From Ignavibacteriota bacterium (GTDB lineage: Bacteria; Bacteroidota; Ignavibacteria; UBA10030; UBA6906), in NCBI GenBank assembly GCA_963808715.1, contig CAWEHG010000009.1:8257-72256 (forward strand): a stretch of 64,000 nucleotides of DNA, written 5' to 3'. The translations under genes were made by a program, and so were the position numbers. Below are positions 2,470-49,350 of the stretch, in pieces (within the stretch, counting starts at the first letter, position 1; every line of letters starts with the position of its first letter). Below the pieces are notes generated by a model. It was not told the DNA's origin, did not search any database, and saw only the letters and a list, made by a program, of their open reading frames with translations.

Positions 2470-3519
2470 ATGACTTCACGAGAACGCTGGCTGGCACTTC
2501 TTGCCGGGGAGAAACCCGACCGCATCCCGACGGACTACTGGGCCACGGACGAGGTGACCGAGCGCCTCCAGCGGGAACTCCGTTGTCCGACGCTGGAGGA
2601 CCTCTACACCACACTGAACATCGACGGCGTCCTGAAGATCTTCCCCAGACGGACCGTCGAGCATTTTCCAGGGGATCCGCGCGCGGACATCTGGGGGATC
2701 AGGCGGAAAGCGGTCCAGTACGGCACCGGATCGTATGACGAATTCGATTCCCACCCCCTCGAGGCGGTGTCCACGGTCGAGGAGATCCACAAGTTCCCCT
2801 GGCCGAAGGCGGCGGATCACGATTTCGACAGCTTCCGCAGGGAGATCGAACGGGCCCCGCATCACCGGATGATCCGTTCCGGGGAGTATGAGCCGTTCCT
2901 CCTCTACTGCGCCATGCGGGGGATCGAGCTCGCCATGATGGACCTGCTGGCAGAGCCGGAGATCGTCACCACCGCGCTCAAGTACATTTTCGACTACTAC
3001 TACGAGCTCAACGCGCGGATCTTCGAGATCGGACACGGGAAGATCGACGTATTCTATCTTGCGGAGGATCTCGGGGGGCAGAGCAGCCTGCTGTTCCGCG
3101 TCGAACAGATCCGGAAGTATTTCATTCCGAACCAGCTGAAGATGGCCGACCTGGCGCGGAGCCATGGCGTGCACGTCTTCTATCATACCGACGGCTCGGC
3201 GCGGGATATTCTGCCCGATCTGATCGACACGGTGGGGATCGAGGTCCTGAACCCGATCCAGTGGCGCTGCCCGGGGATGGAACGGGAAGGGCTGGTGCGC
3301 GATTTCGGGAAGAAGGTGATCTTCCACGGCGCGATGGACAACCAGCAGACGCTCCCGTTCGGCACGGTGGAAGACGTCCGGGCGGAAGTTCTGGAGAACC
3401 TGCAGATCTTTTCGGGCGCGCGCTGGATCTGCGCCCCCTGCCACAATCTTCAGCCGGTGAGCCCCACGGCGAACATCGTGGCGATGTACGAGACGATCCA
3501 CGAGCACGGCACATTGTGA
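2470..3519 (+). CDS. URO-D (uroporphyrinogen decarboxylase) fold protein, MtaA/MT-I-like methyltransferase candidate, paralogue 1
   Basis: Intact 349-aa track ORF. Family-style blocks PDRIPTDYWA, FYLAEDLGGQ, VFYHTDGSARDILPDLIDTVGIEVLNPIQ, CAPCHNLQP. Immediately upstream of a corrinoid protein gene. Confidence 0.75.
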   Translation: MTSRERWLALLAGEKPDRIPTDYWATDEVTERLQRELRCPTLEDLYTTLNIDGVLKIFPRRTVEHFPGDPRADIWGIRRKAVQYGTGSYDEFDSHPLEAVSTVEEIHKFPWPKAADHDFDSFRREIERAPHHRMIRSGEYEPFLLYCAMRGIELAMMDLLAEPEIVTTALKYIFDYYYELNARIFEIGHGKIDVFYLAEDLGGQSSLLFRVEQIRKYFIPNQLKMADLARSHGVHVFYHTDGSARDILPDLIDTVGIEVLNPIQWRCPGMEREGLVRDFGKKVIFHGAMDNQQTLPFGTVEDVRAEVLENLQIFSGARWICAPCHNLQPVSPTANIVAMYETIHEHGTL

Positions 3520-3547
3520 ACAACGACAGCACCCACACCAGGAGGCC

Positions 3548-4189
3548 ATGACCATGGCGGATTTGCAGCAGCTGCACGACGCGATCCTGAACGGTAACTT
3601 CAAGCTTGCGCGCGAGGTGACGGAAAAGGCGCTGGCCGAGAAGGTCGACCCGCAGAAACTCGTCCACGACTACATGATCCCGGCGATGGACGAGGTCGGA
3701 CGCCGGTACGAAGCGAACGAGTACTTCGTCCCCGAGCTCCTGATCGCCGCACGGGCCATGAAGGCCTCCCTCGAGCTGATCCGGCCCCTGCTGGTCGCCA
3801 GCGGCGCCGAATCGGCGGGACGTGTCGTGATCGGCACGGTGAAGGGCGACCTGCACGACATCGGCAAGAACCTCGTCGCGGCCATGCTGGAAGGGGCGGG
3901 CTTCGAGGTGATCGACCTCGGCGTCGACGTGTCGGCGGAGAAGTTCGTCGCCGCGGCGAAGGAAAAGAACGCCCACGTCATCGCGATGTCGGCCCTCCTG
4001 ACCACGACGATGGGGTCCATGAAGACCACGATCGAAGCGATGAAGTCGTCCGGACAGCGCGGGCAGTTCAAGGTGATGATCGGCGGGGCTCCGGTCACGC
4101 AGAAATACGCCGACGAGATCGGGGCCGACGGCTACAGCAACAACGCGAACGCCGCGGTGGCCCTGGCGCGGAAGCTGGTCGCCGCCTGA
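3548..4189 (+). CDS. Methyltransferase cognate corrinoid (B12-binding) protein
   Basis: Intact 213-aa ORF with DxHxxG signature GDLHDIGKN, then SALLTTT and MIGGAP. The N-terminal helical cap resembles MtaC/MtbC-type carriers. AGGAGG lies only 2 nt before ATG 3548, so ATG 3554 is an alternative start. Confidence 0.85.
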   Translation: MTMADLQQLHDAILNGNFKLAREVTEKALAEKVDPQKLVHDYMIPAMDEVGRRYEANEYFVPELLIAARAMKASLELIRPLLVASGAESAGRVVIGTVKGDLHDIGKNLVAAMLEGAGFEVIDLGVDVSAEKFVAAAKEKNAHVIAMSALLTTTMGSMKTTIEAMKSSGQRGQFKVMIGGAPVTQKYADEIGADGYSNNANAAVALARKLVAA

Positions 4190-4191
4190 CC

Positions 4192-5068
4192 ATGACCGGA
4201 TTGAAGGAGATCCTCGCCGGCGCTCCGGTCCTCCTGGACGGCGCGTGGGGAACCCAGCTGCAGTCTCTCGGGCTTCCCACCGGCGACGTTCCGGATGCGT
4301 GGAACCTTCTCCGGCCCGCCGCCGTGAAGGAGGTGGCCCGTCGGTACGTCGACGCGGGGAGCGCGGTCATCCTGACCAACACCTTCCGTGGGAACCCCAT
4401 CTCGCTCGCGGGGTTCGGGCTGGCCGACCGGATGGAGGAGATCAACCGGGCCGGCGTAAGGCTCTCCCGCGAGGCCGCGGGAGACAGGGCCAGGGTCTTC
4501 GCCTCGATCGGCCCGAGCGGCAAGATGCTGATGAGCGACGAGGTCACCGAGGCGGACCTGCGCGCGGCCTTCGAAGCACAGGCCGGGGCGCTGGCGGCGG
4601 AAGGGGCCGACGCTCTGGTGATCGAGACGATGAGCGATCTGGAGGAGGCCACGATCGCTGTCCGCGCCGCGAAACAGACGGGACTGCCGGTCGTCGCCAG
4701 CATGGTGTTCGATTCCGGCAAGGACCACGACCGGACCATGATGGGCTCCACGCCCGAGCAGGTGGCCGTCGCGCTCGAACGAGGCCGGCGCCGACGTCAT
4801 CGGCGCCAACTGCGGCCTCGGGATGGACGGGTACGTCCCCGTGGCACGGAGGCTGCGCGCGGCGACCGACCGGCCGGTCTGGATCAAACCGAACGCCGGA
4901 CTCCCGGAGATGATCGCCGGCATGGTGCGTTACAACACCACCCCGGAGCAGTTCGCCTCCTATGCCCCGGCGCTCGCGTCGATGGGGATCTCGTTCATCG
5001 GCGGGTGCTGCGGCACGACACCGGAGTTCATCCGTGCGCTCGCGCGGACGCTGGGGCGGCAGCCGTGA
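4192..5068 (+). CDS. Homocysteine S-methyltransferase domain protein (MetH N-terminal-like), one frameshift
   Basis: LLDGAWGTQL, ILTNTF and the zinc motif FIGGCCGTTPEFI. The body is in track ORF 4192..5823 and the tail in ORF 4823..5068. One extra base near 4783 turns ALERAGADVIGANCGLG into ALERGRRRRHRRQLRPRDG. Stop TGA 5066-5068. Confidence 0.75.
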
Positions 5069-5823
5069 CCCCGCGAAAATTCCGGCTGATCAGCTGCGAG
5101 GTCCTCTACCGCGAACTGTGCCACACCGTCGCGTCGTCGCCCCACCAGATCGACGTGGGTTTCCTTCCCAAGGGGCTGCACGATATCGGCAGCGCCGGCA
5201 TGGTGGAGCGCCTGCAGTCCGCCGTCGATGCGGTGCCCCCGTCGTCGTACGACGCGATCCTGCTCGGCTACGGCCTCTGCAACAACGGCATCGCCGGTCT
5301 GCGCGCACGCCACACCCCCCTGGTCGTCCCGAGGGCGCACGATTGCATGACCCTCTTCTTCGGCAGCCGCGCGCGCTACACCGAGTTCTTCACCGACAAC
5401 CCCGGGACCTACTTCTTCACCAGCGGGTGGCTCGAGCGTGGGGAGGCCTCCGGCGAGCTCCGGCAGATCTCCATTCAGCATCAGACCGGCATGGACGCCG
5501 ACTATGAGGAACTCGTGAAGAAATACGGCGAGGACAACGCCCGGTTCCTCTACGATCAGCTCTGCGACCATACCAAGCACTACCGGCAGGTCACCTTCAT
5601 CGACATGGGCATCGGGCCGCAGGAACAGTTCCAAGCCATGGCGGAACAGAAGGCCGCCGACCGCGGGTGGAAGTTCACGTGCGCCCGCGGCGACCTGCGC
5701 CTGCTCCGGGACCTGGTGCTCGGGGAATGGAACGCGGAGGAATTCCTCGTCGTTCCCCCGGGCCAGCGGATCGCCGTCTCCTACGACGACGGGATCGTCA
5801 CAACCGAACCGGCGGACGGATGA
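5065..5823 (+). CDS. DUF1638 domain protein (accessory protein of corrinoid methyltransferase clusters)
   Basis: GTG 5065 overlaps the upstream stop (GTGA). RLISCEVLYRE, LLGYGLCNNG, VVPRAHDCMTLFFGS resemble DUF1638 as I remember it. The track shows it only as the 3' part of the false fusion ORF 4192..5823. Confidence 0.6.
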   Translation: MTPRKFRLISCEVLYRELCHTVASSPHQIDVGFLPKGLHDIGSAGMVERLQSAVDAVPPSSYDAILLGYGLCNNGIAGLRARHTPLVVPRAHDCMTLFFGSRARYTEFFTDNPGTYFFTSGWLERGEASGELRQISIQHQTGMDADYEELVKKYGEDNARFLYDQLCDHTKHYRQVTFIDMGIGPQEQFQAMAEQKAADRGWKFTCARGDLRLLRDLVLGEWNAEEFLVVPPGQRIAVSYDDGIVTTEPADG

Positions 5824-7332
5824 GCGTCACGATCACCCTCAGGCCCCTGGGGGCTTCGTTCGAGGTCCCCGAAGGGTCCCCCCTGCAGGACCATCTCTTT
5901 GCCTACGGCGTGGAATTCCCCTGCGGCGGCCGCGGCCGCTGCAAGGGGTGCAGGGTCCGCGTCGCCGACGGGACCCTCCCGGTCACCGCTCCCCAGCGGC
6001 AGATGCTCTCCGCGGAAGAGCTCGCTGCCGGATGGCGGCTGGCCTGCCAGTGCTCGGCGACCTCAGGACCTCACCCTGGAGCTGGCGCAGTGGGAAGCCG
6101 CGATCCTCTCCGACGATTCCCCCCTCTCGTTCCATCCGCGCGACGGCTACGGCATCGCCATCGATGTCGGAACCACGACGATCGTCGGCCAGCTGCTCGA
6201 TCTGCGTGAAGGGAAGGTGCTGGCGGTCCGGAGCGCTCTGAACCAGCAGGCACGGTTCGGCGCCGACATCATGAGCAGGGTAGGCTTCGCAGTGGCCGAA
6301 CACGGGCAGGAACAACTGGTCCGCTCGATCCGCACGCAGACGGGGAGACTGGTCGCCGAGCTGTTGGCCGCCGCCTCGGTTCCGGCGGCCGGCATCGCAG
6401 AAGTGATCCTCGTCGGCAACACCGTCATGCACCATCTCTTTTGCGATCACGACCTGACCCCCCTGTCGGCGTACCCTTTCGAATCCGCCACGCTGGGGGA
6501 GGCCCGCTTCGCCGCGGCGGACCTCGGATGGGACCTCCGCCCGGAGGCAAGCGTCCGTTTCCTCTCCTGCATCGGCAGCTTCGTCGGCAGCGACATCCTC
6601 GCCGGGATCGTGGCCACCCGGCTCCACGAGCAGGAGTCGATCGTCGGACTGGTGGACCTGGGGACCAACGGCGAGATCGTCCTCGGAAACCGCCACCGCA
6701 TGATCTGCACCTCCACGGCCGCGGGACCTGCGTTCGAGGGGGCCCGGATCTCCATGGGAATGCGGGCCTCAACAGGCGCCATATCGGAGGTCCACCGCAA
6801 CGGCGGAACACTGGTCTGCCACGTGCTCGGGAACGTGGCACCCCGCGGGATCTGCGGCAGCGGACTCGTGGATGCGGCCGCCGGGCTCCTGGATCTCGGG
6901 ACGGTTCTCCCGAGCGGACGGATGCCCGGAGGTGATACGATCCTGGCGGAGCCCGTGCGGATCACCCCCACGGACATCCGCGAGTTGCAGCTCGCCAAAG
7001 GGGCCATCGCCGCCGGCGTCCGCCTGCTCTCGAGGGAACTTGGCACAAGCGCTGCAGCGATCGGGCGAATGTCGCTCGCCGGAGCGTTCGGCAACTATGT
7101 GAGTGTGACCAGTGCCCGCAGGATCGGGCTCTTGAACCTGCCGGCGGACGTCATCGTACCGGCGGGGAACACCGCGCTCCACGGGGCAAAACTTGCGTTG
7201 TTCGCTCCTTCGGAGCTTTTTAACGCGATCGCGGCCCGCGTCCAGCACGTCGGGCTCAGCGAGCTCCCCGATTTCCAGGATGTGTATGCCGAAGAGATGG
7301 GCTTTCCAATCACAGACGGAACTCCCCCATGA
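5820..7332 (+). CDS. Reductive activator of corrinoid enzymes (RACE; 2Fe-2S ferredoxin + ASKHA/DUF4445 ATPase), one frameshift
   Basis: ATG 5820 overlaps the upstream TGA (ATGA). N-terminal CGGRGRCKGCRV ferredoxin motif, then IAIDVGTTT, LVDLGTNGEIV, TSTAAGPAFEG. A frame break near 6055-6070 joins track ORFs 5667..6209 and 5899..7332. Confidence 0.8.
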
Positions 7333-8321
7333 GCAGACTCCACGAGCACCTCATCGCTTCGCCTCACAGGCTGGCCATGCCGGTCCTCTCATTCCCCGGA
7401 GGCCAGCTCGCCGGGCGCTCCGTCCGCGAGATGGTCACCGATCCCGCCGCCCAGGTGGAAGTCCAGCAGGCTCTTCACCGAAAATACGGCACGGCGTTCC
7501 TGCTCTCCGCCATGGACCTGAGCGCGGAGGCCGAGGAGTTCGGCGCCTCCATCCTGCTCAGCGACGATGAGATCCCGAGCGTCACGGGCCGCAGGGTGAC
7601 CGACCGCGCCGGGATCGACCAGCTCCGTGTCCCCGCCGTCGGGGGGAAACGCACCGCGGTCTATCTCGAGACCGTACGCCGGCTGGTGGCCGCTTCGCCG
7701 GGTGTCCCGGTGCTGGGCGGTATGATCGGGCCGTTCTCGCTGGCCGGACGGTTGTTCGGCGTCAGCGAGGCACTGCTCGAGACCGCCGTGGATGCCGAGA
7801 CCATGCACGCGCTGATCGACAAGGCCACGACCTTCCTCCTGGCCTACGCCGCAGAATTCAAGAAGGCCGGCGCCTGGGGAGTCATCGTCGCCGAACCGAC
7901 GGCGGGACTGATGTCCCCCCCGGCAGCGGCGGAGTTTTCCTCTCCCTACGTCCGGAGGATCATCGAGTCAGTGACCGACGACCGTTTCGAGATCATTCTG
8001 CACAACTGCGGCGCGCGTCTCCCCCACCTGAAGGCCAGCCTGCAGTCCGGCGCACGTATCCTCCATTTCGGCAAGCCGATGGATATCGTCGCGGCCCTTT
8101 CCGAGGTGAGCCACGACGTGGTCCTGTGCGGGAACCTCGATCCTTCCGAGGTGTTCGTCGGGTCCACCCCGGCGGAGGTTCGCTCCGCCACCGGCAGTCT
8201 GCTGGCGGCAACAGCCTCCAGGAGGAATTTCGTGATCTCCTCGGGCTGCGACGTTCCCCCGAACGCAACCCCCGCGAATATCGAGGCGTTCTTCAAGGCG
8301 GTCGAAGCACATCAACGGTAG
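7329..8321 (+). CDS. URO-D fold protein, MtaA/MtbA-like methyltransferase candidate, paralogue 2
   Basis: Intact 330-aa ORF. ATG 7329 overlaps the RACE stop (ATGA). Blocks MDLSAEAEEFG, IGPFSLAGRL, IVAEPTAGL, ILHNCG, ISSGCDVPP. TAG stop. Confidence 0.75.
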   Translation: MSRLHEHLIASPHRLAMPVLSFPGGQLAGRSVREMVTDPAAQVEVQQALHRKYGTAFLLSAMDLSAEAEEFGASILLSDDEIPSVTGRRVTDRAGIDQLRVPAVGGKRTAVYLETVRRLVAASPGVPVLGGMIGPFSLAGRLFGVSEALLETAVDAETMHALIDKATTFLLAYAAEFKKAGAWGVIVAEPTAGLMSPPAAAEFSSPYVRRIIESVTDDRFEIILHNCGARLPHLKASLQSGARILHFGKPMDIVAALSEVSHDVVLCGNLDPSEVFVGSTPAEVRSATGSLLAATASRRNFVISSGCDVPPNATPANIEAFFKAVEAHQR

Positions 8322-13510: not shown

Positions 13511-13512
13511 GG

Positions 13513-15273: not shown

Positions 15274-15279
15274 GGACGT

Positions 15280-17604
15280 CTACCGTTTTGACGGCGACTT
15301 GAACCCCGGGACCCTCCACTGAAAGTCGGGATCCACGTAGGGTTCGTCGTTCTCGTGTCCCTGCATGAGTGCGATCTTCCTCCGGAGCTGGTCGGCGAAG
15401 TTCCCGTGGTAGTAGATGAAGGTGGTCTCCCCGACGTCCGAGAAGATCATCCACGGGGTCCGTGAGCGTTCTGCGTGTGCCAGAAGCGCCTTCGTGTTCT
15501 CGATCTCGTCGAGCACCATCTGCCGGAGGATCTCGCGGCATTTCTTCTTTGTTGACTCGTCGCGCGACTCCAGGTAGTTGTGCACCCCCGCGATCCACGC
15601 GGTCACGTTCCGCTGGTTGCGGTACCAGCAGAGCATCGCCACGTACCGGTCGTGGAGGTCCTGCGCTGCGGCCTCCCCCTTGCCGCCCCGGGCGCGCGCC
15701 AGAAGTGCGGCGGAACGGTCGTGCGCCTGCTGCATCACCGGCATGACGTTCTCGTTGATCATGGAAAGACATCGCATCGCGTCGTCCGGCTGGATCAGGT
15801 CGAACCCGACGTCGTACCGGAAGTCGACCCGGCAACGGTTGTGCGGAGGAGCCAGAAGGAACTCCTCATAGTATCGCCGGTCCTCCTCGGAGATCTTTTC
15901 GATGTCGGGGACGATCGGGCGGACGAACAGCCGGTACCAGACCCCCCAGCCGGAATAGATCTGCACCGGGACCGGGAAGGCCCTGTAGGCGTCGTCCGAC
16001 AGGTGCCACAACTGGACCAGCTCCGGGGCGAGCTCCGGGCCGATCCACTCCGCCGCTTTCGAAGCCACGAACCGGTCGTACGACAGTCCCGGATCGGCCT
16101 GGAACGCCCTCAGCAGCTCTTCGTTGATGTTGAAGGGTGTCAGGGAACGCGGGGTCGTGCCGCCGGTGTAGGCCAGCGTCGATACGGACTGCCGGGCCAT
16201 GGCGACGAGCTTCTCGTGCACCAGTCGCGGGAACGGAACGCCCAGCAACGGCTCATGGTTCCAGACGGAGCCGCCGGAGAAGTAGACGTCCGTTTCAGCC
16301 CCTTTGGTCCGGATCTGATCCATGACCGTCTTCTCTGCCGGATCGAACCCGTTGAACAGGGCCGTGCCGAGCGTGGCTTTTCGTTCCGGGTATCGGGGAT
16401 GCTTGTACTCTACCTCCCATCCCCGGGAGACCAGCGAACCGGTTTCCACGTCGATCCCGTCCTCCAGCTGGGCCCACAGGTATTTGTGTTCCGCGACGAA
16501 GGCCTCCAGGCGGAGCAGTGTACGGAACTTCGGGTTGACCTTGCGGCCCGCGTCGCGCAGGACCTTGTGGAAGCGGATCAGGTTGTTCGCGGCCGACTCG
16601 GCGATCTCGGTGTCCCCTTTCCACTCGCGGATGACGTAGCCCCCCCCGTTCCGTCCGACGTACAACGAGCTCGTGTACTCGAAGCCGGCGCCGCTGTCGT
16701 TGGACCAGATGGCGATGAAGTCCAGCAGAGGGACCTCCCGCACGAGGTTCTCCATCAGCTCGGCGTAGTGTTCCCGTACCACCGGATGGGCGATGGAAAG
16801 GTTGTACCGCGGATGCCAGCTCCGGATGGGATGATCCACCCTCGCCCCCCGGAGCATGGGATACCGCTCCAGCAGCGCGTCCGGAACGGATCTCGGCTCG
16901 AAGCAGGTGATCCCGGCCGAGAGGCCGTACTTCTCGGCCAGCGCCGCGTTCGTCTTCAGGAAATTCAGGTTCGCCTGAAGGTAGTCGCTGTCATAGTACC
17001 CCCGGTTCAGGCGGCTGGAGACGAACTGGTCGAGCGCGGGGCAGTAGGTATAGAACCTGTGGAGCACTTCTCCGACGGGGCCGCGCTCGAAGGGGACCGC
17101 AAAGGCGAGACCGTTCACTTCGGCGTGTGAGAACCCGAGTCGGGCGAGGTTCCGGATATGTTCTTCCCGGTCGAAATCCCGGAGGGTCCGGTTGTGCATC
17201 GTCAGGAAGCTGTCGTACGAAGGGCGGACCCGCGGGAATGCCGGCGTGATCGTTTTCCCCTGGCGGAACTCCTCCACCGGCAGGTCGATCCATTCTTCGA
17301 TCGCCGAACTCCACGTCCGGAAGAGGAGATGTGGGGCGGACGCGAGGATCTCGATCCCCCCTCCGGGGAGCAGCCGGACGATCCCCCACCCGTTCGGGCC
17401 GCGCAGGGCCGGGTGCTCGGGAGCGGCACCGGTCTGGACGGCGATACGAACGCCCGTGGCGGGCAGCGGTCCGCCCGTTCCGGGCGTCGCCCGGGGAGCC
17501 CAGCCCCCCCTCAGTTCTGACGCAACGGTCTGCTCCACCCGCGGACCGCCGGCGGAGGTGTGGATCGTCGTGACCGTGGAGAAGAATTCCCTAAGTGTTG
17601 GCAT
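15280..17604 (-). CDS. Large cytoplasmic protein of unknown family (family X, intact copy)
   Basis: Intact 774-aa ORF with AGGGAG 8 nt before ATG 17604 and no signal peptide. Shares long blocks with the broken copy at 59703-61916 (RGARVDHP, NDSGxGFE, SSLYxGRNGG, IREWK). No named family recognised. Confidence 0.7.
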   Translation of the reverse strand: MPTLREFFSTVTTIHTSAGGPRVEQTVASELRGGWAPRATPGTGGPLPATGVRIAVQTGAAPEHPALRGPNGWGIVRLLPGGGIEILASAPHLLFRTWSSAIEEWIDLPVEEFRQGKTITPAFPRVRPSYDSFLTMHNRTLRDFDREEHIRNLARLGFSHAEVNGLAFAVPFERGPVGEVLHRFYTYCPALDQFVSSRLNRGYYDSDYLQANLNFLKTNAALAEKYGLSAGITCFEPRSVPDALLERYPMLRGARVDHPIRSWHPRYNLSIAHPVVREHYAELMENLVREVPLLDFIAIWSNDSGAGFEYTSSLYVGRNGGGYVIREWKGDTEIAESAANNLIRFHKVLRDAGRKVNPKFRTLLRLEAFVAEHKYLWAQLEDGIDVETGSLVSRGWEVEYKHPRYPERKATLGTALFNGFDPAEKTVMDQIRTKGAETDVYFSGGSVWNHEPLLGVPFPRLVHEKLVAMARQSVSTLAYTGGTTPRSLTPFNINEELLRAFQADPGLSYDRFVASKAAEWIGPELAPELVQLWHLSDDAYRAFPVPVQIYSGWGVWYRLFVRPIVPDIEKISEEDRRYYEEFLLAPPHNRCRVDFRYDVGFDLIQPDDAMRCLSMINENVMPVMQQAHDRSAALLARARGGKGEAAAQDLHDRYVAMLCWYRNQRNVTAWIAGVHNYLESRDESTKKKCREILRQMVLDEIENTKALLAHAERSRTPWMIFSDVGETTFIYYHGNFADQLRRKIALMQGHENDEPYVDPDFQWRVPGFKSPSKR

Positions 17605-17658
17605 AGAATAACTCCCTGGTGTCGTGAGACCGTGAGACGTAGTGTGTTGGTATGAGTT

Positions 17659-18675
17659 CTATTTTCCTGTCACTGCTTCTTTCGCCGCGAGCAACACCTC
17701 CGTCGGGGTGCCCAGAGGGACGACGCCCGTTCCGAGGATGAATCCCGGATACCCTCCGGCGGCCGCAACTTCTGCCACCGCCCTGCGGTGCACCTCTTCC
17801 GGCCGATCGGTGAGGAATCCTGTCGGGTCGAGGCTTCTTCTGAAGGCCCGGCCCGCCCGTCTGCAGCGCTCGAGAAACGGCGCCAGTGGCGTCCGAAAAT
17901 CGCACAAGATATTGTTCGCTCCCGTTTCCAGATAGGCGTCGAGGATCGGAAGCGTGTTCCCGCCGATGATCAACGGTACGTGTTTCACCCCCTCCCGGTG
18001 GAGGAGATCGATCAGCTGCCGCGCGGGCTCGATCGCGAGAGCGCGGTACGAAGCCGGCGAGATGACCTCCGGGGAAGCGTGGGAATCATAGATGACCACG
18101 CCGCATCCCCTCCTGGCGAATGCCCGCGCGTAGGCGGCGAGCACACCGACGCAGAATCCCATCAGTTCGCGGACGACATCGGGTTCGCTGCGGACGGCCA
18201 TCAGGAGGTTCTCGGCCCCCATCACGCCCGCTGCCATGGAGAAGGGGCCGCTGAGCGCGCCGCGGACGACGGTCTGTCGGCCGATCGCCCGCTCCACCCG
18301 TTCCGCGGCATGAAGGAACAGGGGCATACGCCCGTCCACTTCCGGATCCGGTACGCGCAAAGCACTGACAGGGGCTCCCTCCGCCAGGACCTCTCCGCCG
18401 GGGAGCAGAGACGGGATCCCGGGATCGTCGCCATCCGGATAGTGCACCCGCGCCCCCGCGGCTTCTGCCTCCACGTTGTACGGATCGACCCCCACGACGA
18501 TCGCATCCGCCTGCAGCTCCTCGAATTCCCGAAGCGTGGCCTGCACCAGCAGATCCGCGTCGCGGCAGAGGCGTGAAGGGACGCTTCCGACGAACCAGGC
18601 CTTGTGTTCGAGCACCGCCGGTACGAACGGGATCCGGTCGGGCTTGCGGCCGTCGAGGACATCCAGCAATCTCAT
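17659..18675 (-). CDS. URO-D fold protein, paralogue 3
   Basis: ATG 18675 (MRLLDVLDGRKPDRIPFVP). Blocks SGPFSMAAGVMG, VVIYDSHASPEVISP, LIIGGNT, FILGTGVVP. The track fuses it to the upstream kinase (ORF 17659..19704). Confidence 0.75.
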   Translation of the reverse strand: MRLLDVLDGRKPDRIPFVPAVLEHKAWFVGSVPSRLCRDADLLVQATLREFEELQADAIVVGVDPYNVEAEAAGARVHYPDGDDPGIPSLLPGGEVLAEGAPVSALRVPDPEVDGRMPLFLHAAERVERAIGRQTVVRGALSGPFSMAAGVMGAENLLMAVRSEPDVVRELMGFCVGVLAAYARAFARRGCGVVIYDSHASPEVISPASYRALAIEPARQLIDLLHREGVKHVPLIIGGNTLPILDAYLETGANNILCDFRTPLAPFLERCRRAGRAFRRSLDPTGFLTDRPEEVHRRAVAEVAAAGGYPGFILGTGVVPLGTPTEVLLAAKEAVTGK

Positions 18676-19611
18676 TGCAGAGGCCCCCGTTGTTCCACCA
18701 GAACTCCTCCTTCCAGGGCGGCGATCCCGGCGCTCGAGGCGCAAGAGACCTCCCACCTCTGCTGCATTGGCGGCCCCAGCGGCCGCCCCCCGCACGAGAG
18801 CGCGGGCGAAACTCTCCCCTGCCTCGAGCGACGCCAGAAAGCCGGCGATCATGGAGTCGCCGGACCCCGTGGCGTTCACCGGACGCACCGGGGGCGGAAC
18901 GATCTTCCACCAGTCTGTCCCATCGGTCGCGTAGCACGGTCGCGGGCCGTCAGTGATGATGGCAGAGCGGATCCCTATCCCCACGAACCGCCGGAGCGCC
19001 ATTCTGAATTCCTCGTCGGTTTCCAGCGTCCCGCCGAACGTCTGCCGGAACTCATCCGCATTGACCTTGACCATTTCCGGCAGCGCCTCCACCCCCAGCC
19101 GGAACGTTTTCCCGTAGGAATCCAGAGCGGAGGCCTTTCCGGCCCGCCGGGCGGCGCCGATGATCCGGGCGTAGACGTCGTCGGTCGCCGCGCAGGGCGA
19201 GCTCCCGCAACAGACCACCCACCGGGCTCCGGGGAAGAGGGCAACACACTTCGCCACCAGAGCGTCCGCCTCGGCCGACGTCACGGTGTGGGGCGGTTCG
19301 AAGATCGCCGTCCAGGTGCCGTCCGGTTCCCGGTAGGTCACCCCCTCGCGCGTGGCGGAGGCGACCTCGACGAAATCGTGCGGGATCCCTTCCGCGGAGA
19401 GCAGATCCGCCAGCATTTCACCCACCGGTCCGCCCCAGCATCCCGTCGCCACTGTCGGCACGCCGAGCAGGTGCAGCTGGCGCGCGACGTTCACCCCCTT
19501 GCCGCCCACCACCATGCCTACGTGGGTCGCCCGGTGGGTCCTCCCCCGCGTGAGGTTCTCCACCTCGACCGTCTTGTCGAGCATCGGGTTGAGCGTGACC
19601 GTCAGGATCAT
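18672..19611 (-). CDS. PfkB-family hexose-phosphate kinase (1-phosphofructokinase/tagatose-6-P kinase type), probable frameshift near 3' end
   Basis: ATG 19611 overlaps the aldolase stop (ATGA). MILTVTLNPMLDKT, GGKGVNVARQL, NATGSGDSMIAGF. Shifting one base near 18750 gives ..AGIAALEGGVLVEQRGPLQ-TGA, and this TGA (18672-18674) overlaps ATG 18675. Confidence 0.7.
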
Positions 19612-20439
19612 CGCAGCAGTTTCAGGGCCGAAGCCACCGTTGCCTCTTCGTGGACCACCGCGCAGAGGGCGGCGATCATCTTCTCCATGCGCGGATGCTG
19701 CCACACGTTCCGTCCGATGATGACGCCGTGGGCGCCTGCCTCCACCGTGTCGTGCGCCAGGCGCAGGAGGTTTTCGTCGGTGCTTTTCATCGGCGGACCG
19801 CCTGCCACGACCACCCGCGCGCCGGCGGCCGAATCGACCACCGAGCGGAAGCCGGCAACGGTCCCCACGAACCGGGTCTTCACCACTTCCGCCCCGGCTT
19901 CCACACCGATCCTGACCACCTCCGCGGTCTCGCGGACAGGATCGACGGCCTTCCCCGAGCGCTTGAAGATCTCGGTCCCGAAATGGTTGTTGAGAAGGCT
20001 GGGGGCGATGATCTCGGCGACGAGCGGGACCCCCAGGTCATCGGCCTCCGCCGCCGTCTTTCCCAGGCGGATCATGGACTCCGACTCGATCGGCGTTCCG
20101 AGGAACGTGAAGACGATCATCGCGTCAGCGCCAAGGGCGAGTCCCTGCCGGACCGTGTACATCTCCTGGTAGTCGGTGGGCTTGACCACGTACTTCGTGA
20201 ATCCCCCGTCGATCCTGAGCATGATGCCCAGGTCTCCGGCCGCCGGGGCGACGTTCTTCAGGATCCCCGGCGTCACCAGGATCCCGTCGGCCTTCGTCCG
20301 GGCGATCCGTTCGGTCAGAGTGAACGGGTCCTCGATCCCGGGAACGGGCCCGGAAAAAGAGCCGTGGTCGAACGGGATGATCACCACTCGTTGGTTCTTC
20401 CAGATCTTCTGCAGGCGCAGCTGTTTTCCGGTGATGCAT
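19608..20439 (-). CDS. Class I aldolase, DhnA/LsrF (DeoC/LacD-like) family, frameshift just after start
   Basis: Body is track ORF 19608..20387 (VVIIPFDHG, LRIDGG, VVKTRFVG, GRNVWQH). The conserved N-terminus TGKQLRLQKIWKNQR has no in-frame start. ATG 20439 (GAGGAA 6 nt upstream) is one base out of frame, so an indel lies near 20428. Confidence 0.65.
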
Positions 20440-20460
20440 ATCGTTCCTCAGCCTCGATCG

Positions 20461-22777
20461 TCAGTGATTGACCTCTTGATCCAACGCCTTCAGTTCTCGG
20501 TTTTCACCACGTCTTCCCAGAGCCTCCACTTCGAGAACCCCACCCGCGGCGGGGTCCCGTCGAGCTGCAGGGAATGCGAATTCGGGAGAGCGCCGACCAG
20601 CGTGTTTCCCACGGTGCGAGATCTTCAGGAAGTTCGAGCAGGCGTACCAGAGGGTTCCGGGTTCCTGCCTCGCGCACAGGAAGTACCCGTCCGTCTCGAA
20701 ATCGCCGAACGAGACCTTCCCGAGATCGTACAGGGCCCGTGGACGGATGTTCTCCCGCGCCAGTTCCATCTCCAGATCGATCCGCGCATAGATCGTCCAG
20801 CGGCTCTTTCCCGAAACCAGTTCGAGCGCCAGCGCGCGCGAGGGAGCGCTTACCGGAAGCAGCCGGACGGACGGGAGTGATGCCGGGAGCTTCGCGGAGC
20901 GGTCGTGCGGCACCAGCAGGGTCACGAAGACCTCATGGTCGCCGGCCTTATACTGGCTTGCGATGGATTGGTAGACGGCCGTTTCCTGGAGACCGTGCCG
21001 GCTGATCGGTTCCACGCTGTCGACCTTGGCGTAGGTCTCGGGGAAGCAGACCGCCAGCGATCGGTCGCGCGGGAAGACGTACCCGGGAAGCGTATCCGTG
21101 GCGACGTCGTACCAGTGTTCGCCCCGGGAAAGGATCTTTCCGGCATGCCAGAAATTCGTGAACGTGAAGTAGTCGGAGCGGAGGATCTTCACGCCGTCGA
21201 TCACCACGAAACAACCGGGTTCCTTCACGTAGACGACGATCCGGTCCCAGCGGTACCCCAGCGCCTCGTCCTCGACGCGGGTCCGGCTCATATCCGCCTC
21301 CCGGGTCTTCAGGAAATCGACCTCTGGCCGTTTGCACCGGCCTGTAGGCTCCGGAGTTCCGCGCGAACTCGAGCGGCGATTGCGCGGGGTCCCGTTTGTT
21401 CAACCGGACCACCAGCCGGTTGTGGAAATAGTCCTGTCGCCAGGCGCCGTACTTCCCGCTCGGCAGGCCGTCACGGTACCCCGCATCGTGCAGGAGCAGC
21501 GACCCCCGGTCCATCAGCGAGACGATGCTGTTCTCGTCCGCGTGGCCGTGGTGCATCTTTTCTTCCTCCACGGAGATGGTGTTGCGCAGGTAGGTCCGAT
21601 CCAGGAGTCCGCCGTCCCCCTCGTCGCGGTAGTTGACCAGAAGGTATGTGCTGGTCGGGTTCCCAGCCGTTCCGGAACACCACCTTCTTGCCGATGACGT
21701 CATCCAGCACCTCCTGGCTGAGCGACGTCGGCCGGGCCGGGCGTGACCGATTCGTCGGTCCAGCGGTAGGCATCGGAGAGGTGGTAGGCATCCCCCACGC
21801 TGAATCCGGCTCCTGGCCGGCGGGCGGCTGCAAGGACCGACGCCGCGGCCCATTTCCATTCGGGGTGCTTGAAGACCGCCGCTCCCTTTTCGAAGAAGGC
21901 GACCATCCGCAGTCCCGCCGCGGACGACTGCCAGCCGGCGTCTCCGTAGTCCGGGATGGTGCCGGAGGGTCCGATCAGTTTCGTGTAGAACTCGAAGTAG
22001 TACCGGACGAACGCGGACGAGTACACTTCCGGGTGCCCGGCCGCTTCGGCGTACGAGAAGAGCGCATGCAGCCAGACCGGGTTGTAGTTCGAGGCATCCT
22101 CGATCTCCCAGTGACCGAGGTTGTCCATCGCGATGACCCGGGCCATCTGCCGCCAGGCCGCGGCGCGGGGATGCTCGGGAAGCGCCATCGCCGCATACTG
22201 AAGCGCCTCCGCCCGTAGCATCGCCCGGTTGTGACCTCCCCACTCGGGGAACCGGAAGATGAAATCCACGCTCTGCGCCAGGTCCCGTTCGATCTTCTCG
22301 CGCTGGGCGGCGGTCATCACCCCGCTGCCGCGGATCCGGAGATATGCCCTGGCATAGGGAGGAAGGAAGAAGAAGTTGCTGAGCGCGGGAACACCGTCCG
22401 CATACTCGGCGCGGGAAGCCGCGAACCCTTTCGGGAGGATCTCCCGCAGGTCTCCGTAGGTCGCCAGCAGGGTCGCGGCCCGCTCGGCGTAGTCGCGCTG
22501 GCCGGTCTGCTCGTACAGGAATCCCAGCGTGGCCGCGAGATAGATCGGGTGGGCCGGGGCATCGTACCCCCAGAGAATGTTGGGCTTCGAGGTCTTCTTC
22601 CACTGCTCCACGATCCCGGGATTCTGCTTCCATCCCTTCTTCCGCGGCCTTGACGATCTCCTGGAGGTAGACCTCCTTCTGCGCGAACGCGGCCGCAGGC
22701 AGCAGAAGGAGCGCCAGGACGGCCCTCGCGAACAACGAACACACTGGAGCGCTGGCGAACCCGGGGACAGCATTCAT
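20461..22777 (-). pseudogene. Heparinase II/III-like polysaccharide lyase family protein 1, Sec signal, reading frame broken at least 4 times as sequenced
   Basis: ATG 22777 (MNAVPGFASAPVCSLFARAVLALLLLPAAAFAQ) overlaps the upstream TGA. Pieces lie in track ORFs 20948..23557, 21700..22773, 21471..21833 and 20461..21291, with breaks near 22640, 21720, 21650 and 21300. HHGHADENSIVSL motif. An alternative C-terminus ..VGNTLVGALPNSHSLQLDGTPPRVGFSKWRLWEDVVKTEN ends at 20490. Confidence 0.65.
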
Positions 22778-23841
22778 GATGTAACTCCCATGTCGTGGTG
22801 ATAGACGTTTCTCTCGTCGAGCATCGTGAGGTAGTTCTCGACCGGCACATAACTGGGGACCGAATTGCCCGCACCGAGCGCGTACCGCCCGCGCGCGCCG
22901 CACGTTTCCAGCAACAGGCGCGTCTGCGCGCGAACCTGCGCAGGAGTACCGCCCGAGAGGATGTTCAGGTCCAGCCCCCCGAGCACGGCGATGCTGTCGC
23001 CGTAGGTCTTCTGGAACTCCTGGACAGGCATGATGGCGTCCTCGAACGAGTGTTTCCCGTCGATCCCGACCGTATCGATCAGGTCGGTCATGATCGCGGC
23101 GAGGTTTCCGCACGAGTGGAGGAAATAGGGCAAACCGTGCTCGTGCGCAAGAGCGGCGAAGCGCGCGTGCCACGGCAGCGTGTATTCCCGGAGCTTCGCC
23201 GGCGAGATGATCGTGGCGGTTCTGTAGCCCATGTCGTCGCCAGGGAAGACCACCGCCAGCCGGTCGAGCTGGACCAGGTGGCGGTAGAACCCCAGCATCA
23301 GCTCTCCGAGCCTGTCGGCGACCGCCCGGACCAGCGCCGGATCCTCGGCGAGCGCGTAGGACAATCCTTCGACCGACATGATCCAGGAGAGGTGTTCGAA
23401 GACACCGCCGCCGTGACACGAGATCAGCCCCATCCCCTCGGGCAGATGGGCGTTCAGATACTCGAACGGGAAAAAGTCGAACTCCTCGACCTTCGGCCAG
23501 GGATACCGTTCGAAGTCGTGCCAGCTCGTGATCGTCCCGTGGGAGCTGTCCGTCCACTCGCGGTCCTTGGCGGATCCGGGGGAAGCGTCCGGAGCGATCT
23601 GGAGCCGGCGCGGCAACGGGAGCATCTCTTCGAACCGGACAAAATCGTATCCCATCCCGTGCCAGAAGGCGATGAAGTTGTCGAGGTATACGCCGAGGCG
23701 TTTCCGGTCGGTGACCCCGGGGGCCGGGCGGTCCACCCAGACGCGGCCGAGCAGATCGCCGAGGACGGGTTTCATGACCACGTCATCCACGATGTACTCG
23801 ATGAGCGGGACGTAGGGGGTCCGCTGATCCCCGCGCAGCAC
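22774..23841 (-). CDS. URO-D fold protein, paralogue 4
   Basis: 355-aa track ORF. Blocks FVRFEEM, VFPGDDMGYRT, PYFLHSCGNLAAIMTDLIDTVGIDGKHSFED, ALGAGNSVP. The GTG start is uncertain: the upstream in-frame PDIDRFLR looks coding and ATGs at 23898 and 23886 are out of frame. Confidence 0.7.
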   Translation of the reverse strand: MLRGDQRTPYVPLIEYIVDDVVMKPVLGDLLGRVWVDRPAPGVTDRKRLGVYLDNFIAFWHGMGYDFVRFEEMLPLPRRLQIAPDASPGSAKDREWTDSSHGTITSWHDFERYPWPKVEEFDFFPFEYLNAHLPEGMGLISCHGGGVFEHLSWIMSVEGLSYALAEDPALVRAVADRLGELMLGFYRHLVQLDRLAVVFPGDDMGYRTATIISPAKLREYTLPWHARFAALAHEHGLPYFLHSCGNLAAIMTDLIDTVGIDGKHSFEDAIMPVQEFQKTYGDSIAVLGGLDLNILSGGTPAQVRAQTRLLLETCGARGRYALGAGNSVPSYVPVENYLTMLDERNVYHHDMGVTS

Positions 23842-23898
23842 GCGGAGGAAGCGATCGATATCAGGCCGTGGGACGGGAAGAGGAGATCATGGAGTCGT

Positions 23899-24836
23899 TC
23901 ATATGCCGTATGTCGTGGTTGCCGGATCGGCCGGGCCGGCCTGGTCAATGGCCGCGCACAGCGCTGCGTAGTCCCCGATGGACTCTCCGAGTGCCGCGGG
24001 GACCACCTGGCAGGCCGCGAAGGCCTCCGGCAGCGCCTCGGCGCGCATCACCTCGACAGCCGGACCGACGAGGGCGTCCGCGATGCGCATTCCCAGGCCG
24101 CCGAGGATGATCTTCTCCGGATTCAGCAGATCCAGCAGCATCGCCAGCCCGCGTCCGAAAGCCCGGGAGGCGCGGTCGAATACCGCGCGCGCCTGCGGAT
24201 CGCCGCTTTTCCACGAAGAGTAGATCCCGGAGGCGCCACCGGTCCATCGCCCGGGGAACATCATCTCTCCCAGCAACGCGATGCCGGTGCCGCTGCAGAA
24301 CCCTTCGAGGGATCCGGCCTTTCCGAAGCACGGGGGGCCCTCTTCGGCGACTCGCACGTGGCCGATCTCACCCGCCACATCGCTGGTTCCCCGGTAGAGC
24401 TGCCCGTTCAGGATCAGTCCCGCCCCGAATCCCGTTCCCATGGTCAGGAAGATGATGTTCCTGTATCCCCGGCCGGCGCCGAAGTGGAACTCCGCGAGCG
24501 CGCCCGCGTTCCCGTCGTGCTCCACGTACACGGGAAGGCGGAACCGCTCGAAGAGCATCGTCTTCAGCGGGATCGAATCCCAGCCGGGGAGGTTCGGGGG
24601 GACTTGACGATCCCCTGCAGAACGTCGAGCGGGCCGCCGATCGAGACGCTGATCGCCGCAGCAGTCCCCCGGGTGCGTTCCCGCGCTGCTTCGATCGCGG
24701 AGCACAATTCGTCGAACATCGCCGCGAAACCACGGCGGGGTTCGGTCGGGAATTGCCGCTTCCAGGTGATCGTCCCCGCTGTGCTCCCAAGGACCACCGC
24801 CGTCTTCGTCCCGCCGATGTCGCAACCGATGATCAT
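23899..24836 (-). CDS. ROK family sugar kinase, one homopolymer frameshift
   Basis: MIIGCDIGGTKTAVV (ORF 24564..24836) continues as ..PNLPGWDSIPLK..VEHDGNAGALAE..GEIGHVRV in ORF 23899..25011. The join lies in the G run at 24596-24601 (KSPPNLPGW needs one more C on the coding strand). Confidence 0.75.
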
Positions 24837-24863
24837 ATGAAAAGGATCGCCGCGGCCCGTTTC

Positions 24864-25998
24864 TCAGGAAGCAAGCAGGCGCTTCACGATCTCCGATGCC
24901 TGATGGAGTTGAACGAGGTCCAGATATCTCGCTCGGCCGTATGGGCCTGCGCGATATCCCCCGGGCCGAAGACGACGGTGGGGATCCCGTGTCGGTTGTA
25001 GATCCCCGCATCGGTCGCGTACGGTGCGGTCTCGACGACCACGGTCCCGGTCACCTCCCGGATCGCCTTCTCGAGAAGGCCGACCACGGGAGCCGTTTCG
25101 GGAACGTCCATCCCGGGGACATCCAGGTACGGTTCCTCCATCCGGATGCCGGGGAGGTCGTCCAGCAATGACCTGGCCGCCCCCAGGACCTCGGCGGTCG
25201 TCTCGCCTGGCAGCGTTCGCCGGTCCACGTCGATGTGGCAGCGGTCAGGGACGATATTCACCGCCTGCCCCCCATCGATCACACCAACGCTCAACGAGCC
25301 GGTCCCCAGTGCCTCGTGCGCAGGAGAGGTCTTCAGCATTGAGGCGTACTGTTCGAGGCGTACCAGCGCTGGCGCCATCCGGTGGATGGCGTTCGTCTCC
25401 CCGCTCAGGGTATGCGGAGTGGGCGGCCCTTCCCTCCGAGTGGATCTTCCACCGGGTGACCCCTTTGTGCGCCCTCACGATCCGCAGCCGGGTGGGTTCC
25501 CCCGCGATACCGAAGTCCGCGCACAATCCCCTGGCGGCCGCCTCCCGGGCGCCGGTGAACAGGAACTCCTCGTCGGCCACCGCCGCGAACACGATGTTGT
25601 AGCGGAGCGCCGCCGGCCGGCGCGCGGCTTCGCCGACCGCGAACAGGAACGCGGCGAGCGACCCCTTGGTGTCACACGCCCCCCGGCCGTACAGACGTCC
25701 TTCCTTCAACGTCGGGATGAATGTCCCGACCTCCATGCCCTCGGCAGGTACAGTATCGAGATGCGCCTCCAGGAGGACGGTGGCGGACGCTCCGGCATGG
25801 AACCGCCCGACCGACGTTGGGCGTCCGGGGCGACCTCCTGCCGTTCGACGTCTGCTCCAAGTGCGCCGAGCGCCCGGGCCACGTAGTCCGCCACCGCCGC
25901 CTCTCCATAGGCTGCCCCCGTGCGGCCGCGCTGCGCCCCATGGGGTTTATACTGGGGATGGCCAGCAGATCCGCGAGCAGAGAGACGAGGGGGTCCAT
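24864..25998 (-). pseudogene. M20 family metallo-deacylase (ArgE/DapE-like), four frame breaks as sequenced
   Basis: ATG 25998 (MDPLVSLLADLLAIPSINP). HLDTVPAEG, GRGACDTKG, AVADEEF, then the C-terminal half in ORF 24884..25378. Breaks near 25900, 25800, 25385 and 24945. True tail ..RYLDLVQLHQASEIVKRLLAS with TGA at 24864-24866. Confidence 0.7.
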
Positions 25999-25999
25999 G

Positions 26000-26900
26000 T
26001 CACGACTTCCGAACCGGGTTCCGGAGTTCCCCGATCTTCTCGATCCGGCAGACCACCTCATCCCCGGGAAGAATCGGACCGATCCCTTCAGGGGTCCCGG
26101 TGGAAACCACATCCCCCGGCTCGAGGGTGATCCTCTGCGAGATGTACGCCAGCACCCGGGGAACCGGGAAGACCAGGTGTTTCGTGCTGGAGCGCTGCCG
26201 GAGCTTCCCGTTGACGCGACATTCGATCTGCAGGCGTCCCGGATCCTTGATCTCGTCTGCGGTCACCATCCACGGTCCCATCGGCCCGAACGTGTCGAAA
26301 CTCTTCGAGCGGAACCAGGGCTCTTGCTTCGCGAGATCCGCAGCCTGCATCTCCCTCGCGGTCACGTCGTTCAGTACGGTATATCCCGCAACGTACTACA
26401 GCGCCTCGTCCGGCCGGATCCCCTTCGCCGTCCTTCCGATGACGACCGCCAGTTCCACTTCATGGTCCACCCTCCCGACGTCCGTCGGAAACACGGATCG
26501 GCTCGTCGGGCCCGATGACCGACGATCCCGCCTTCGCAAAGAGGATCGGGCTCGTGGGGGCACCGGTGCGTTCGCCTCCTTCGCATGAAGGGCGTAGTTC
26601 CGTCCGAGGGCCACGATTTTCTCCGCGGGCGCGCGAGTGGGGCCTTCATGCGTGCCTCTTTCGGTACCCGGTATAGTTTTTCCAGCCGGTTGCCGCGCAC
26701 GAACCGGTCCACCGCCGCGAGCTCTTCCAGGTCGAACTCCTCGTGTTCCAGCAGATCCGTGATCGTCCAGGCCGGATCCGTGTGAATATTGTGGACCTGG
26801 AGGTAGAAGACCGCAGCGGCCTTGGTGTAGTTGATCCACGAAGCTGCGGAACGGACCCAATCAGGGGATTTCCGTCATGTTCGAACTGGGCGACCTTCAT
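26000..26900 (-). pseudogene. Fumarylacetoacetate hydrolase (FAH) family protein, four frame breaks plus an in-frame TAG
   Basis: MKVAQFEHDGNPLIGSV at 26900. KIVALGRNYALHAKE, PILFAKAGSSVIGPDEPI, VDHEVELAVVIG, then EAL-TAG-YVAGYTVLNDVTAREMQ (TAG 26396-26398 in frame). C-terminal ORF 26000..26365 is intact. Breaks near 26848, 26625, 26550 and 26485. Confidence 0.7.
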
Positions 26901-47325: not shown

Positions 47326-47388
47326 CTCAACGATACAGAAAAGGTCCGCAAGAGGCAAGCCGCCCCACGGGGAGCGGAGCGGCTCCGG

Positions 47389-49306: not shown

Positions 49307-49350
49307 GGAGTCTCCTGTGTCATCCTGCCGTTCGGCTGCAACTGCCTCGA

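Follow-up and report, generated by a model that had tools for sequence, protein, structure and literature searches.

Two uroporphyrinogen decarboxylase-fold genes in a sugar operon of an Ignavibacteriota bacterium and their possible part in corrinoid-dependent demethylation

Why would a long sugar-catabolic operon carry two genes of the uroporphyrinogen decarboxylase (URO-D) fold? The question is raised by a stretch of 64,000 nucleotides from an Ignavibacteriota bacterium (assembly GCA_963808715.1, contig CAWEHG010000009.1, positions 8,257 to 72,256 of the forward strand; the window hereafter), in which an initial annotation had placed two minus-strand open reading frames (ORFs) of this fold at 17659-18675 and 22774-23841. 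Both were confirmed above the gathering score of Pfam PF01208, and we call them URO-D3 and URO-D4. The best explanation of our results is that both are functional members of the operon and that they come from two large, different, uncharacterised subfamilies. We favour an operon-embedded URO-D3 that acts as a methyltransferase I (MT-I, the substrate-side enzyme), depends on a corrinoid carrier protein and works on a methylated sugar, with URO-D4 as a second module; we give this explanation as a whole a probability of roughly 0.45. The two genes are:

17659..18675, minus strand: URO-D3, an intact URO-D-fold gene of 338 amino acids (aa), of an MtaA-like branch, without zinc ligands
22774..23902, minus strand: URO-D4 (ORF 22774-23841, 355 aa), of a separate, highly conserved URO-D-fold subfamily

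Against PF01208 (gathering score 23.9), URO-D3 scored 140.5 bits. Among the NCBIfam models those for MtaA/CmuA ranked above hemE, all of them below cut-off: URO-D3 reached 66.8 on TIGR01463 (cut-off 235.4), too low a score for an MtaA/MtbA-type assignment (TIGR01463 / NF040654), and 46.1 on the hemE model TIGR01464 (cut-off 302.95). Its AlphaFold2 model (pLDDT 95) found MtaA (4ay8) as the best match in the PDB, with a TM-score of 0.86. The family is nevertheless without all three MtaA zinc ligands, as I-I-G ... T replaces His-x-Cys ... Cys and the invariant motifs PLIIGGNT and GTGVVP stand where H-x-C and C would be. The position of the HemE histidine is occupied by threonine, the NLGHG motif reading GTG.

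The identity of the genes, their synteny, the adjacency to a carrier and the motif content were observed directly, and it is the gene context that speaks most clearly for URO-D3. Across 77 genome loci with adequate flanks, a corrinoid protein accompanied the URO-D3 relative in 25 and lay at most 400 bp away in 20; MtaB was found in 14 loci, RACo in 11, a pterin methyltransferase in 12 and an MTHFR-like gene in 20. When the relatives were at least 47% identical, 15 of 20 loci contained such a corrinoid-system gene. Loci of Ignavibacteria, Kryptoniota and other Bacteroidota have the order PfkB, URO-D3, carrier, MtaB and U774 (a 774-aa protein described below) inside the sugar operon, and the operon MtaB matched M. 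barkeri MtaB (2i2x) at 6.7e-92 with three zinc ligands kept, at what we take to be the residue numbers of the 2i2x paper. The Opitutaceae loci combine a URO-D3-like gene with a carrier, MTHFR, Pterin_bind, an amidohydrolase and RACo, next to regulators of the AraC and GntR/sugar-binding types; there the URO-D3-like protein is the sole MT-I candidate and the layout is that of a canonical demethylase operon. Because of these contexts (carrier with MtaB, or carrier with MTHFR, pterin methyltransferase and RACo), which we consider decisive, URO-D3 is a probable corrinoid-protein-dependent methyltransferase, as far as sequence and synteny can tell.

Next to this stands the question of the side of the carrier on which URO-D3 would act. 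A substrate-side MT-I role, rather than that of the unloading methyltransferase II (MT-II), is most likely (a ratio of ~60:25), because the protein has no thiol-activating zinc site, an MT-II directed to tetrahydrofolate (THF) is of another fold and the Opitutaceae layout is that of a demethylase operon. The initial annotation had made the loss of zinc ligands part of what would refute its proposal; this criterion is not valid, and the missing zinc is no argument against an MT-I role of URO-D3, because CdmB and a Moorella O-demethylase are zinc-free MT-I enzymes of the UroD superfamily (PMC13222342). In sequence comparisons with CdmB (9rui, the only characterised MT-I compared), URO-D3 and its window paralogue URO-D1 gave no match and URO-D4 gave a non-significant one (E 0.36).

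A distinctly unlikely alternative is that URO-D3 serves as an MtaA-like MT-II which unloads the carrier onto a non-thiol acceptor, in a methanol-capturing system of MtaB, carrier and URO-D3 whose methanol would derive from glycans, methyl-esterified or methylated, through esterases or beta-elimination. Many Ignavibacteria-type operons do contain these three genes as a complete MtaABC-like trio, their MtaB is close to the true methanol methyltransferase with its zinc ligands retained, and MtaA is the best structural match of URO-D3; in such loci URO-D3 could equally be the unloading enzyme, which counts against the MT-I assignment. The alternative is itself opposed by the absence of every MtaA zinc ligand from URO-D3, by the window and several other operons, which have URO-D3 but no MtaB, and by the Opitutaceae loci, which pair a URO-D3-like gene with a pterin methyltransferase and have no MtaB. 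Moreover, in bacterial methanol systems the MT-II is a pterin-binding protein and not one of the URO-D fold. Bacterial MT-II enzymes for methanol have a size of ~30 kDa (29.7 kDa for MtaA; PMC13391211).

As a separate observation, close homologues of the methanogen MtaB occur in sugar operons of non-methanogenic genomes of the Bacteroidota/Ignavibacteria type (loci L007-L013, L016-L019, L021-L024, L062, L171 and L175; for example, positions 11714-13084 of L007). Such an operon-embedded MtaB could capture or release methanol.

URO-D4 scored 60.8 bits on PF01208 and has more than 2800 homologues, the best of which are 62-70% identical across metagenome-assembled genomes (MAGs) labelled KSB1 and Bacteroidota and measure 365-375 aa. 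Its AlphaFold2 model (pLDDT 86) also matched MtaA best in the PDB (TM-score 0.72), and its orthologue in locus L002 scored 33.3 on TIGR01463 without any TIGR01464 (hemE) match. URO-D1 (E 2e-16) is its nearest paralogue in the window, and a YPWPK..DF motif is common to the two. In the alignment with MtaA, H242-S-C244 of URO-D4 falls on H240/C242 and E267 on the glutamate of the MtaA 'SVEE' motif; the C-terminal cysteine of MtaA corresponds to alanine in URO-D4 and to serine across the family, so that the full zinc triad is not present. Among 111 representatives at most 50% identical to one another, H242 was conserved in 110, C244 in 99 (aspartate in 11, as in URO-D1), H264 in 104, E267 in 86, D203 in 110 and N326 in 102. 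In the model, H242/C244 and H264 follow the adjacent strands beta6 and beta7, which makes a putative His/Cys/His(+Glu) metal site plausible. URO-D4 is thus probably a second, metal-dependent enzyme of the URO-D1 subfamily and, tentatively, a further methyl-transfer module for another substrate. That it depends on a corrinoid at all is a claim to which we give slightly less than an even chance.

The initial annotation had also offered a cofactor-free decarboxylation of the HemE kind and had suggested comparing zinc and HemE residues across the four URO-D paralogues of the window. That comparison located the complete MtaA-type zinc triad in URO-D2 only, a partial set (H-x-C and Glu) in URO-D4 and none in URO-D3. 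The HemE histidine is absent from URO-D3 and URO-D4, its position in the latter being alanine or serine (GAG/GSG), and neither protein has a HemE signature. A HemE-like decarboxylase was rejected for both on model scores and motif content.

If URO-D3 needs a carrier, where does it find one in this genome? The single corrinoid carrier of the window that the initial annotation had reported at 3548-4189 was upheld by Pfam and synteny; it belongs to a module convergent to the sugar operon:

2470..8321, plus strand: corrinoid module, convergent to the sugar operon (Pfam and paralogue alignment)
2470-3519, plus strand: URO-D1 (Pfam)
3548-4189, plus strand: corrinoid (B12-binding) carrier protein (Pfam), the sole one in the window
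4192-5823, plus strand: homocysteine S-methyltransferase with DUF1638 (Pfam)
5899-7332, plus strand: RACo activase (Pfam)
7329-8321, plus strand: URO-D2, with the full MtaA zinc triad (H-N-C ... C)

With its zinc triad, URO-D2 is a candidate thiol-methylating MT-II, as is the homocysteine-methyltransferase-like protein. No MtaB was found in the window. The combination of the same sugar operon and a convergent module (URO-D1, carrier, S-methyl_trans, DUF1638 and RACo, with URO-D2 in some cases) was recovered in at least three other assemblies (L171, L175/L176 and L033); the operon there has URO-D4, URO-D3 and usually MtaB, and the window has the same layout minus MtaB. Of the module in the sister contig L090 just the edge with the URO-D2 homologue is visible, as the sequence retrieved stops inside that gene. 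The repeated linkage of operon and module in separate lineages supports functional coupling and carrier sharing, and the module at 2470..8321 is the presumed carrier, sink and activase shared by the URO-D proteins of the operon. It is established that one carrier and one MT-II can serve several MT-I enzymes (PMC13391211). The proposal of the initial annotation that the two genes are extra MT-I modules sharing one carrier is therefore well supported for URO-D3, by carrier adjacency and the recurrent layout, and indirectly for URO-D4, by its paralogy to URO-D1 and its conserved putative metal site.

Two further details of the module were noticed. The homocysteine S-methyltransferase domain covers positions 1-195 of a 283-position model and lies with DUF1638 in one ORF of 543 aa, while in L171 and L175 the two are adjacent genes, so the fusion may be an indel artefact. 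The RACo gene has a TTG start and is without the N-terminal Fer2 domain present in L175.

From these elements a working scheme can be drawn. The glycosidases and kinases of the operon would yield a methylated sugar or sugar phosphate, possibly an O-methylated sugar, whose methyl group URO-D3, and perhaps URO-D4, would move onto the Co(I) of the carrier encoded at 3548-4189; the freed sugar phosphate would enter the PfkB and aldolase steps. The carrier would be unloaded by the homocysteine S-methyltransferase/DUF1638 protein, by the zinc-type URO-D2 or by both, and RACo would keep it reduced. What was observed is the gene content; the course of the methyl transfer, a sugar as its donor, the sharing of the carrier, the chemistry of URO-D4 and the sink are inferred. 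The sink would differ among lineages: a thiol here, THF in Opitutaceae, which attach a pterin methyltransferase and MTHFR, and exchange with methanol via MtaB in Ignavibacteria, which attach an MtaB homologue to URO-D3. Extended beyond this genome, the scheme would describe a widespread, undescribed anaerobic demethylation of methylated sugars in which proteins of the URO-D3 type, perhaps also of the URO-D4 type, load a corrinoid protein whose methyl group passes to a thiol (homocysteine methyltransferase/DUF1638) here, to THF in Opitutaceae and possibly to water via reversed MtaB in Ignavibacteria; this extension is speculative and, in our estimate, doubtful. If the reversed MtaB were real, the net reaction would be hydrolysis of a methyl ether with release of methanol.

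Several points weigh against this scheme. Cleaving an alkyl methyl ether is chemically more demanding than cleaving the aryl ethers on which known O-demethylases act, and a full-text literature search found no paper tying corrinoid methyltransferases to methylated sugars. The window carrier is on the opposite strand, ~13.5 kb from URO-D3 and ~18.6 kb from URO-D4. In the operon variants of L001, L002 and L172, URO-D4 is the sole URO-D gene and a corrinoid gene is absent within 10 kb, and L173, a locus anchored on U774, has no URO-D gene at all; therefore, the URO-D genes are accessory to the operon. A carrier adjoined URO-D4 in none of 45 loci, more than 25 loci have it standing alone among unrelated housekeeping genes, with no other conserved neighbours, and in the 150 top-ranking representatives out of 7282 no fusion of URO-D4 to a B12 domain was found. 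The search for such a Rosetta-stone fusion did give long hits, which were rejected as a URO-D tandem and an unrelated N-terminal domain.

These last observations bear on a rival reading, less likely than not, in which URO-D4, and conceivably the window URO-D3, is a corrinoid-independent, metal-dependent TIM-barrel sugar enzyme, such as a MetE-like direct alkyl transferase, a decarboxylase or an isomerase. It would accommodate the carrier-free and stand-alone loci and the operons without a nearby corrinoid gene; the 62-70% identity between phyla points to a common substrate that does not vary, the conserved His/Cys/His/Glu set could serve other metal chemistry, and L150 has groups of URO-D-like paralogues next to sugar ABC transporters, with no carrier. 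On the other hand, URO-D1, the closest paralogue, adjoins a carrier, and the H-x-C and Glu of URO-D4 align with the zinc ligands that MtaA/MetE-type enzymes use for alkyl transfer. Superclusters that contain a carrier, MtaB and RACo also include URO-D4, which in one locus (L164) lies next to DUF1638, and the missing HemE signature speaks against a decarboxylase of that kind.

In favour of a corrinoid role, MtaB lies two genes upstream of URO-D4 in 6 of the 45 loci, and in the short locus L128 as well, and L164 combines URO-D4 with DUF1638 and several URO-D paralogues. Clusters of 3-5 URO-D-like paralogues that include URO-D4 orthologues were noticed in L150 (2683-7491) and L164 (38-6800), with no carrier on the contig stretch; their neighbours are either DUF1638 or, by eye from the translated sequence, permeases of sugar ABC transporters together with a gene resembling a nucleoside hydrolase.

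The argument for functional membership comes from the operon itself. The window, of ~65% GC, has a single long run of same-strand genes on the minus strand from ~13.5 to 30 kb, in the 5' to 3' order GH38, FAA hydrolase (FAH), M20 peptidase, ROK kinase, URO-D4, a ~750-aa secreted protein, a DeoC/DhnA-type aldolase, PfkB, URO-D3, U774, an SSF transporter, CN-hydrolase and SDR; the order of the five genes from URO-D4 to URO-D3 is that of the initial annotation. In 13000-30500, promoter-like and terminator-like sites were not above shuffled expectation, and an Rfam search of the window found no cobalamin riboswitch or any other Rfam family. Contexts fetched via URO-D4, URO-D3 and U774 showed that the operon is kept in MAGs of Bacteroidota/Ignavibacteria, of KSB1 and of other groups, relatives of Ignavibacterium album (L011) among them. 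The parts that recur are M20, the secreted ~750-aa protein, PfkB, U774, a glycerate kinase and SSF; GH38, GH3, ROK, URO-D4, the aldolase, URO-D3, carrier with MtaB, MR_MLE/FAH and others are optional. The suggestion that such genes would be unusual in a glycan locus holds relative to the literature only, the arrangement being common in environmental genomes. The genes around the URO-D pair are:

15280..17604, minus strand: U774, a cytoplasmic 774-aa protein with no assigned family (synteny)
18672..19611, minus strand: PfkB, a hexose kinase of the 1-phosphofructokinase type (Pfam PfkB; the L002 orthologue passes TIGR03168, 237.6 vs 216.4)
19608..20387, minus strand: DeoC/LacD-family (DhnA-type class I) aldolase (Pfam DeoC, 83.7 bits)
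20461..22777, minus strand: HepLike, a large secreted protein with no assigned family (signal peptide after the ATG at 22777; four tblastn pieces)
23899..24839, minus strand: ROK sugar kinase (tblastn pieces 23941-24600 and 24585-24839; frameshift near 24590 by the phase of GC content at third codon positions, GC3)

The gene junctions are compact. Of three ATGA overlaps given in the initial annotation, two are real in the window: at 22777-22774 a true stop/start overlap precedes a gene that opens with a signal peptide, and at 19611-19608 the aldolase stop overlaps the PfkB start. The third, at 18675-18672, is lost as written, since its TGA is out of frame for PfkB, and PfkB and URO-D3 share one frame with no stop between them, in a single ORF of 681 aa (17659-19704). 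An extra base at ~18760, absent from L090, L005 and L006 in the alignment and accompanied by a change of GC3 phase, shifts the last ~28 codons of PfkB; without it, PfkB ends ...EQRGPLQ* on the TGA at 18674-18672, overlapping the URO-D3 ATG, as in relatives. A genuine PfkB-URO-D3 fusion protein was rejected on the basis of this 1-bp insertion, missing from three relatives, and of the listed URO-D3 homologues, which measure 326-387 aa apart from one 227-aa fragment. Likewise, comparison with the N-terminus of P0001 places the ancestral ATG of URO-D4 at 23902-23900, overlapping the ROK stop and out of frame with the window ORF. Intact relatives (L005, L001) have the same 4-bp junction overlaps, so that both URO-D genes are coupled, start to stop, to the kinase gene before them, URO-D4 to ROK (4 bp in L001) and URO-D3 to PfkB.

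Are these genes, then, remnants of a decaying locus? GC3 phase and tblastn together revealed frame changes, ~5 in HepLike and more in ROK, M20, FAH, GH38 and U608 (a 608-aa protein), dense over 20461-30000. That so many neighbouring genes are frameshifted is the point in favour of regarding the URO-D genes as decaying or silent passengers of a pseudogenised locus. We consider this extremely improbable: both URO-D ORFs are intact over the Pfam span with GC3 of 0.78-0.85, and intact proteins 94-97% identical to each exist elsewhere. Moreover, L090 is 94.5% identical to the window, yet the alignment has 96 gap openings in 17 kb, and the genes broken in L090 differ from those broken in the window. 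Because the indels are dense, as fits sequencing error, and the broken genes differ, the frameshifts are most likely errors of an unpolished long-read assembly, as judged from this comparison, and pseudogenisation was rejected in favour of assembly error.

The remaining operon genes are less readily named. For the aldolase, the NCBIfam relatives are ADH-synthase and class I fructose-bisphosphate aldolase, with scores below cut-off; ~17 conserved codons without a start codon precede its ORF, and the conserved coding sequence, by translation, runs to ~20447. The gene that had been called heparinase-like does lie between URO-D4 and the aldolase, but that label came from a sub-threshold match to Pfam Hepar_II_III_N (E 0.0096, 15.7 vs 22 bits); the protein is ~750 aa in relatives, is split in the window by its frameshifts, and has in L173 an orthologue with a precomputed PF16889 match. 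U774 has 1347 homologues, the best 120 at 57-95% identity and all named ones 'hypothetical', and in relatives its gene always comes immediately after URO-D3 or after the set URO-D3, carrier and MtaB. Sequence searches of Pfam, NCBIfam and the PDB gave no usable relative for U774, HepLike or U608. U774 and U608 are probably undescribed carbohydrate-active enzymes. A second, frameshifted U774 paralogue is present at 59706-61727, and U608 occurs in two copies (30582-32389 and 34449-36222). Elsewhere in the window, a genuine Heparinase II/III C-terminal domain (6e-13) occurs in the protein encoded at 42554-44170, which is separate from HepLike, and a 1317-aa ORF at 47327-51280 has two stretches matching the sodium:solute symporter family, a tandem fusion or a frameshift artefact.

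Glycans of plants, algae and microbes commonly contain O-methylated sugars, and the favoured explanation addresses how anaerobes handle them. To our knowledge, the only described route of sugar demethylation is an oxygen-dependent P450 acting on 6-O-methyl-galactose. If our explanation is true, corrinoid methyltransferases would extend beyond aryl ethers, methanol, amines, thiols and halomethanes, in glycan degraders of sediment, fen and soil, and polysaccharide turnover would be tied to B12 demand and to the fluxes of C1 units, methanol and methyl-sulfur that supply methanogens. It would also provide a function for two very large groups named 'uroporphyrinogen decarboxylase family' and perhaps for U774, HepLike and U608.

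Finally, we compared the locus with known systems. HemE is of the same Pfam family and fold (the AlphaFold2 models match MtaA and HemE with TM-scores of 0.72-0.86), but the window genes have neither a haem-synthesis context nor the active-site histidine. The methylcobamide:CoM methyltransferases MtaA/MtbA (4ay7/4ay8) and the MtaABC methanol system were compared next. MtaA/MtbA have the fold of both proteins, and next to URO-D3 relatives there is likewise a carrier of the MtaC type, with a true homologue of MtaB. Of the MtaA zinc site, URO-D4 keeps H-x-C and Glu, URO-D3 keeps none; URO-D4 further differs by having no C-terminal cysteine and by its family-specific His264, and both fall far below the NCBIfam cut-offs. 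The hosts of MtaABC are methanogens, whereas here the genes lie inside a sugar operon of glycan-degrading bacteria.

In the corrinoid O-demethylase and dehalogenase systems (OdmB/VdmB, MtvB, CdmBCA), a UroD-superfamily MT-I works with a carrier, a pterin MT-II and an activase, and the Opitutaceae layout with a URO-D3-like gene has the same architecture. Measured against such a three-component system, the window neighbourhood has an activase (RACo) and an acceptor methyltransferase (homocysteine S-methyltransferase/DUF1638, URO-D2). The O-demethylase and dehalogenase systems are known to act on aryl methyl ethers, on halomethanes, on amines and on thiols, but not on sugars; their MT-II is of the pterin type, whereas the candidates in the window are of the thiol type (homocysteine methyltransferase domain, URO-D2), and CdmB has no significant sequence link to URO-D1, URO-D3 or URO-D4. 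The nearest published analogue, at the level of gene content, is provided by the type 1 mlp clusters (Kountz and Balskus, PMC10418091), which have several MtaA-like UroD paralogues, one carrier, a Ram/RACE activase and no THF methyltransferase, with a proposed link to methyl-sulfur metabolism; these are mainly from Firmicutes, and PMC10418091 names no DUF1638, sugar or carbohydrate. The parts described here, namely UroD-superfamily methyltransferases, an MtaC-type carrier, RACo and MtaB, are thus already known in kind; what is new is their integration into a conserved carbohydrate operon and the two subfamilies themselves, one MtaA-like and zinc-less, the other with a His/Cys/His motif.

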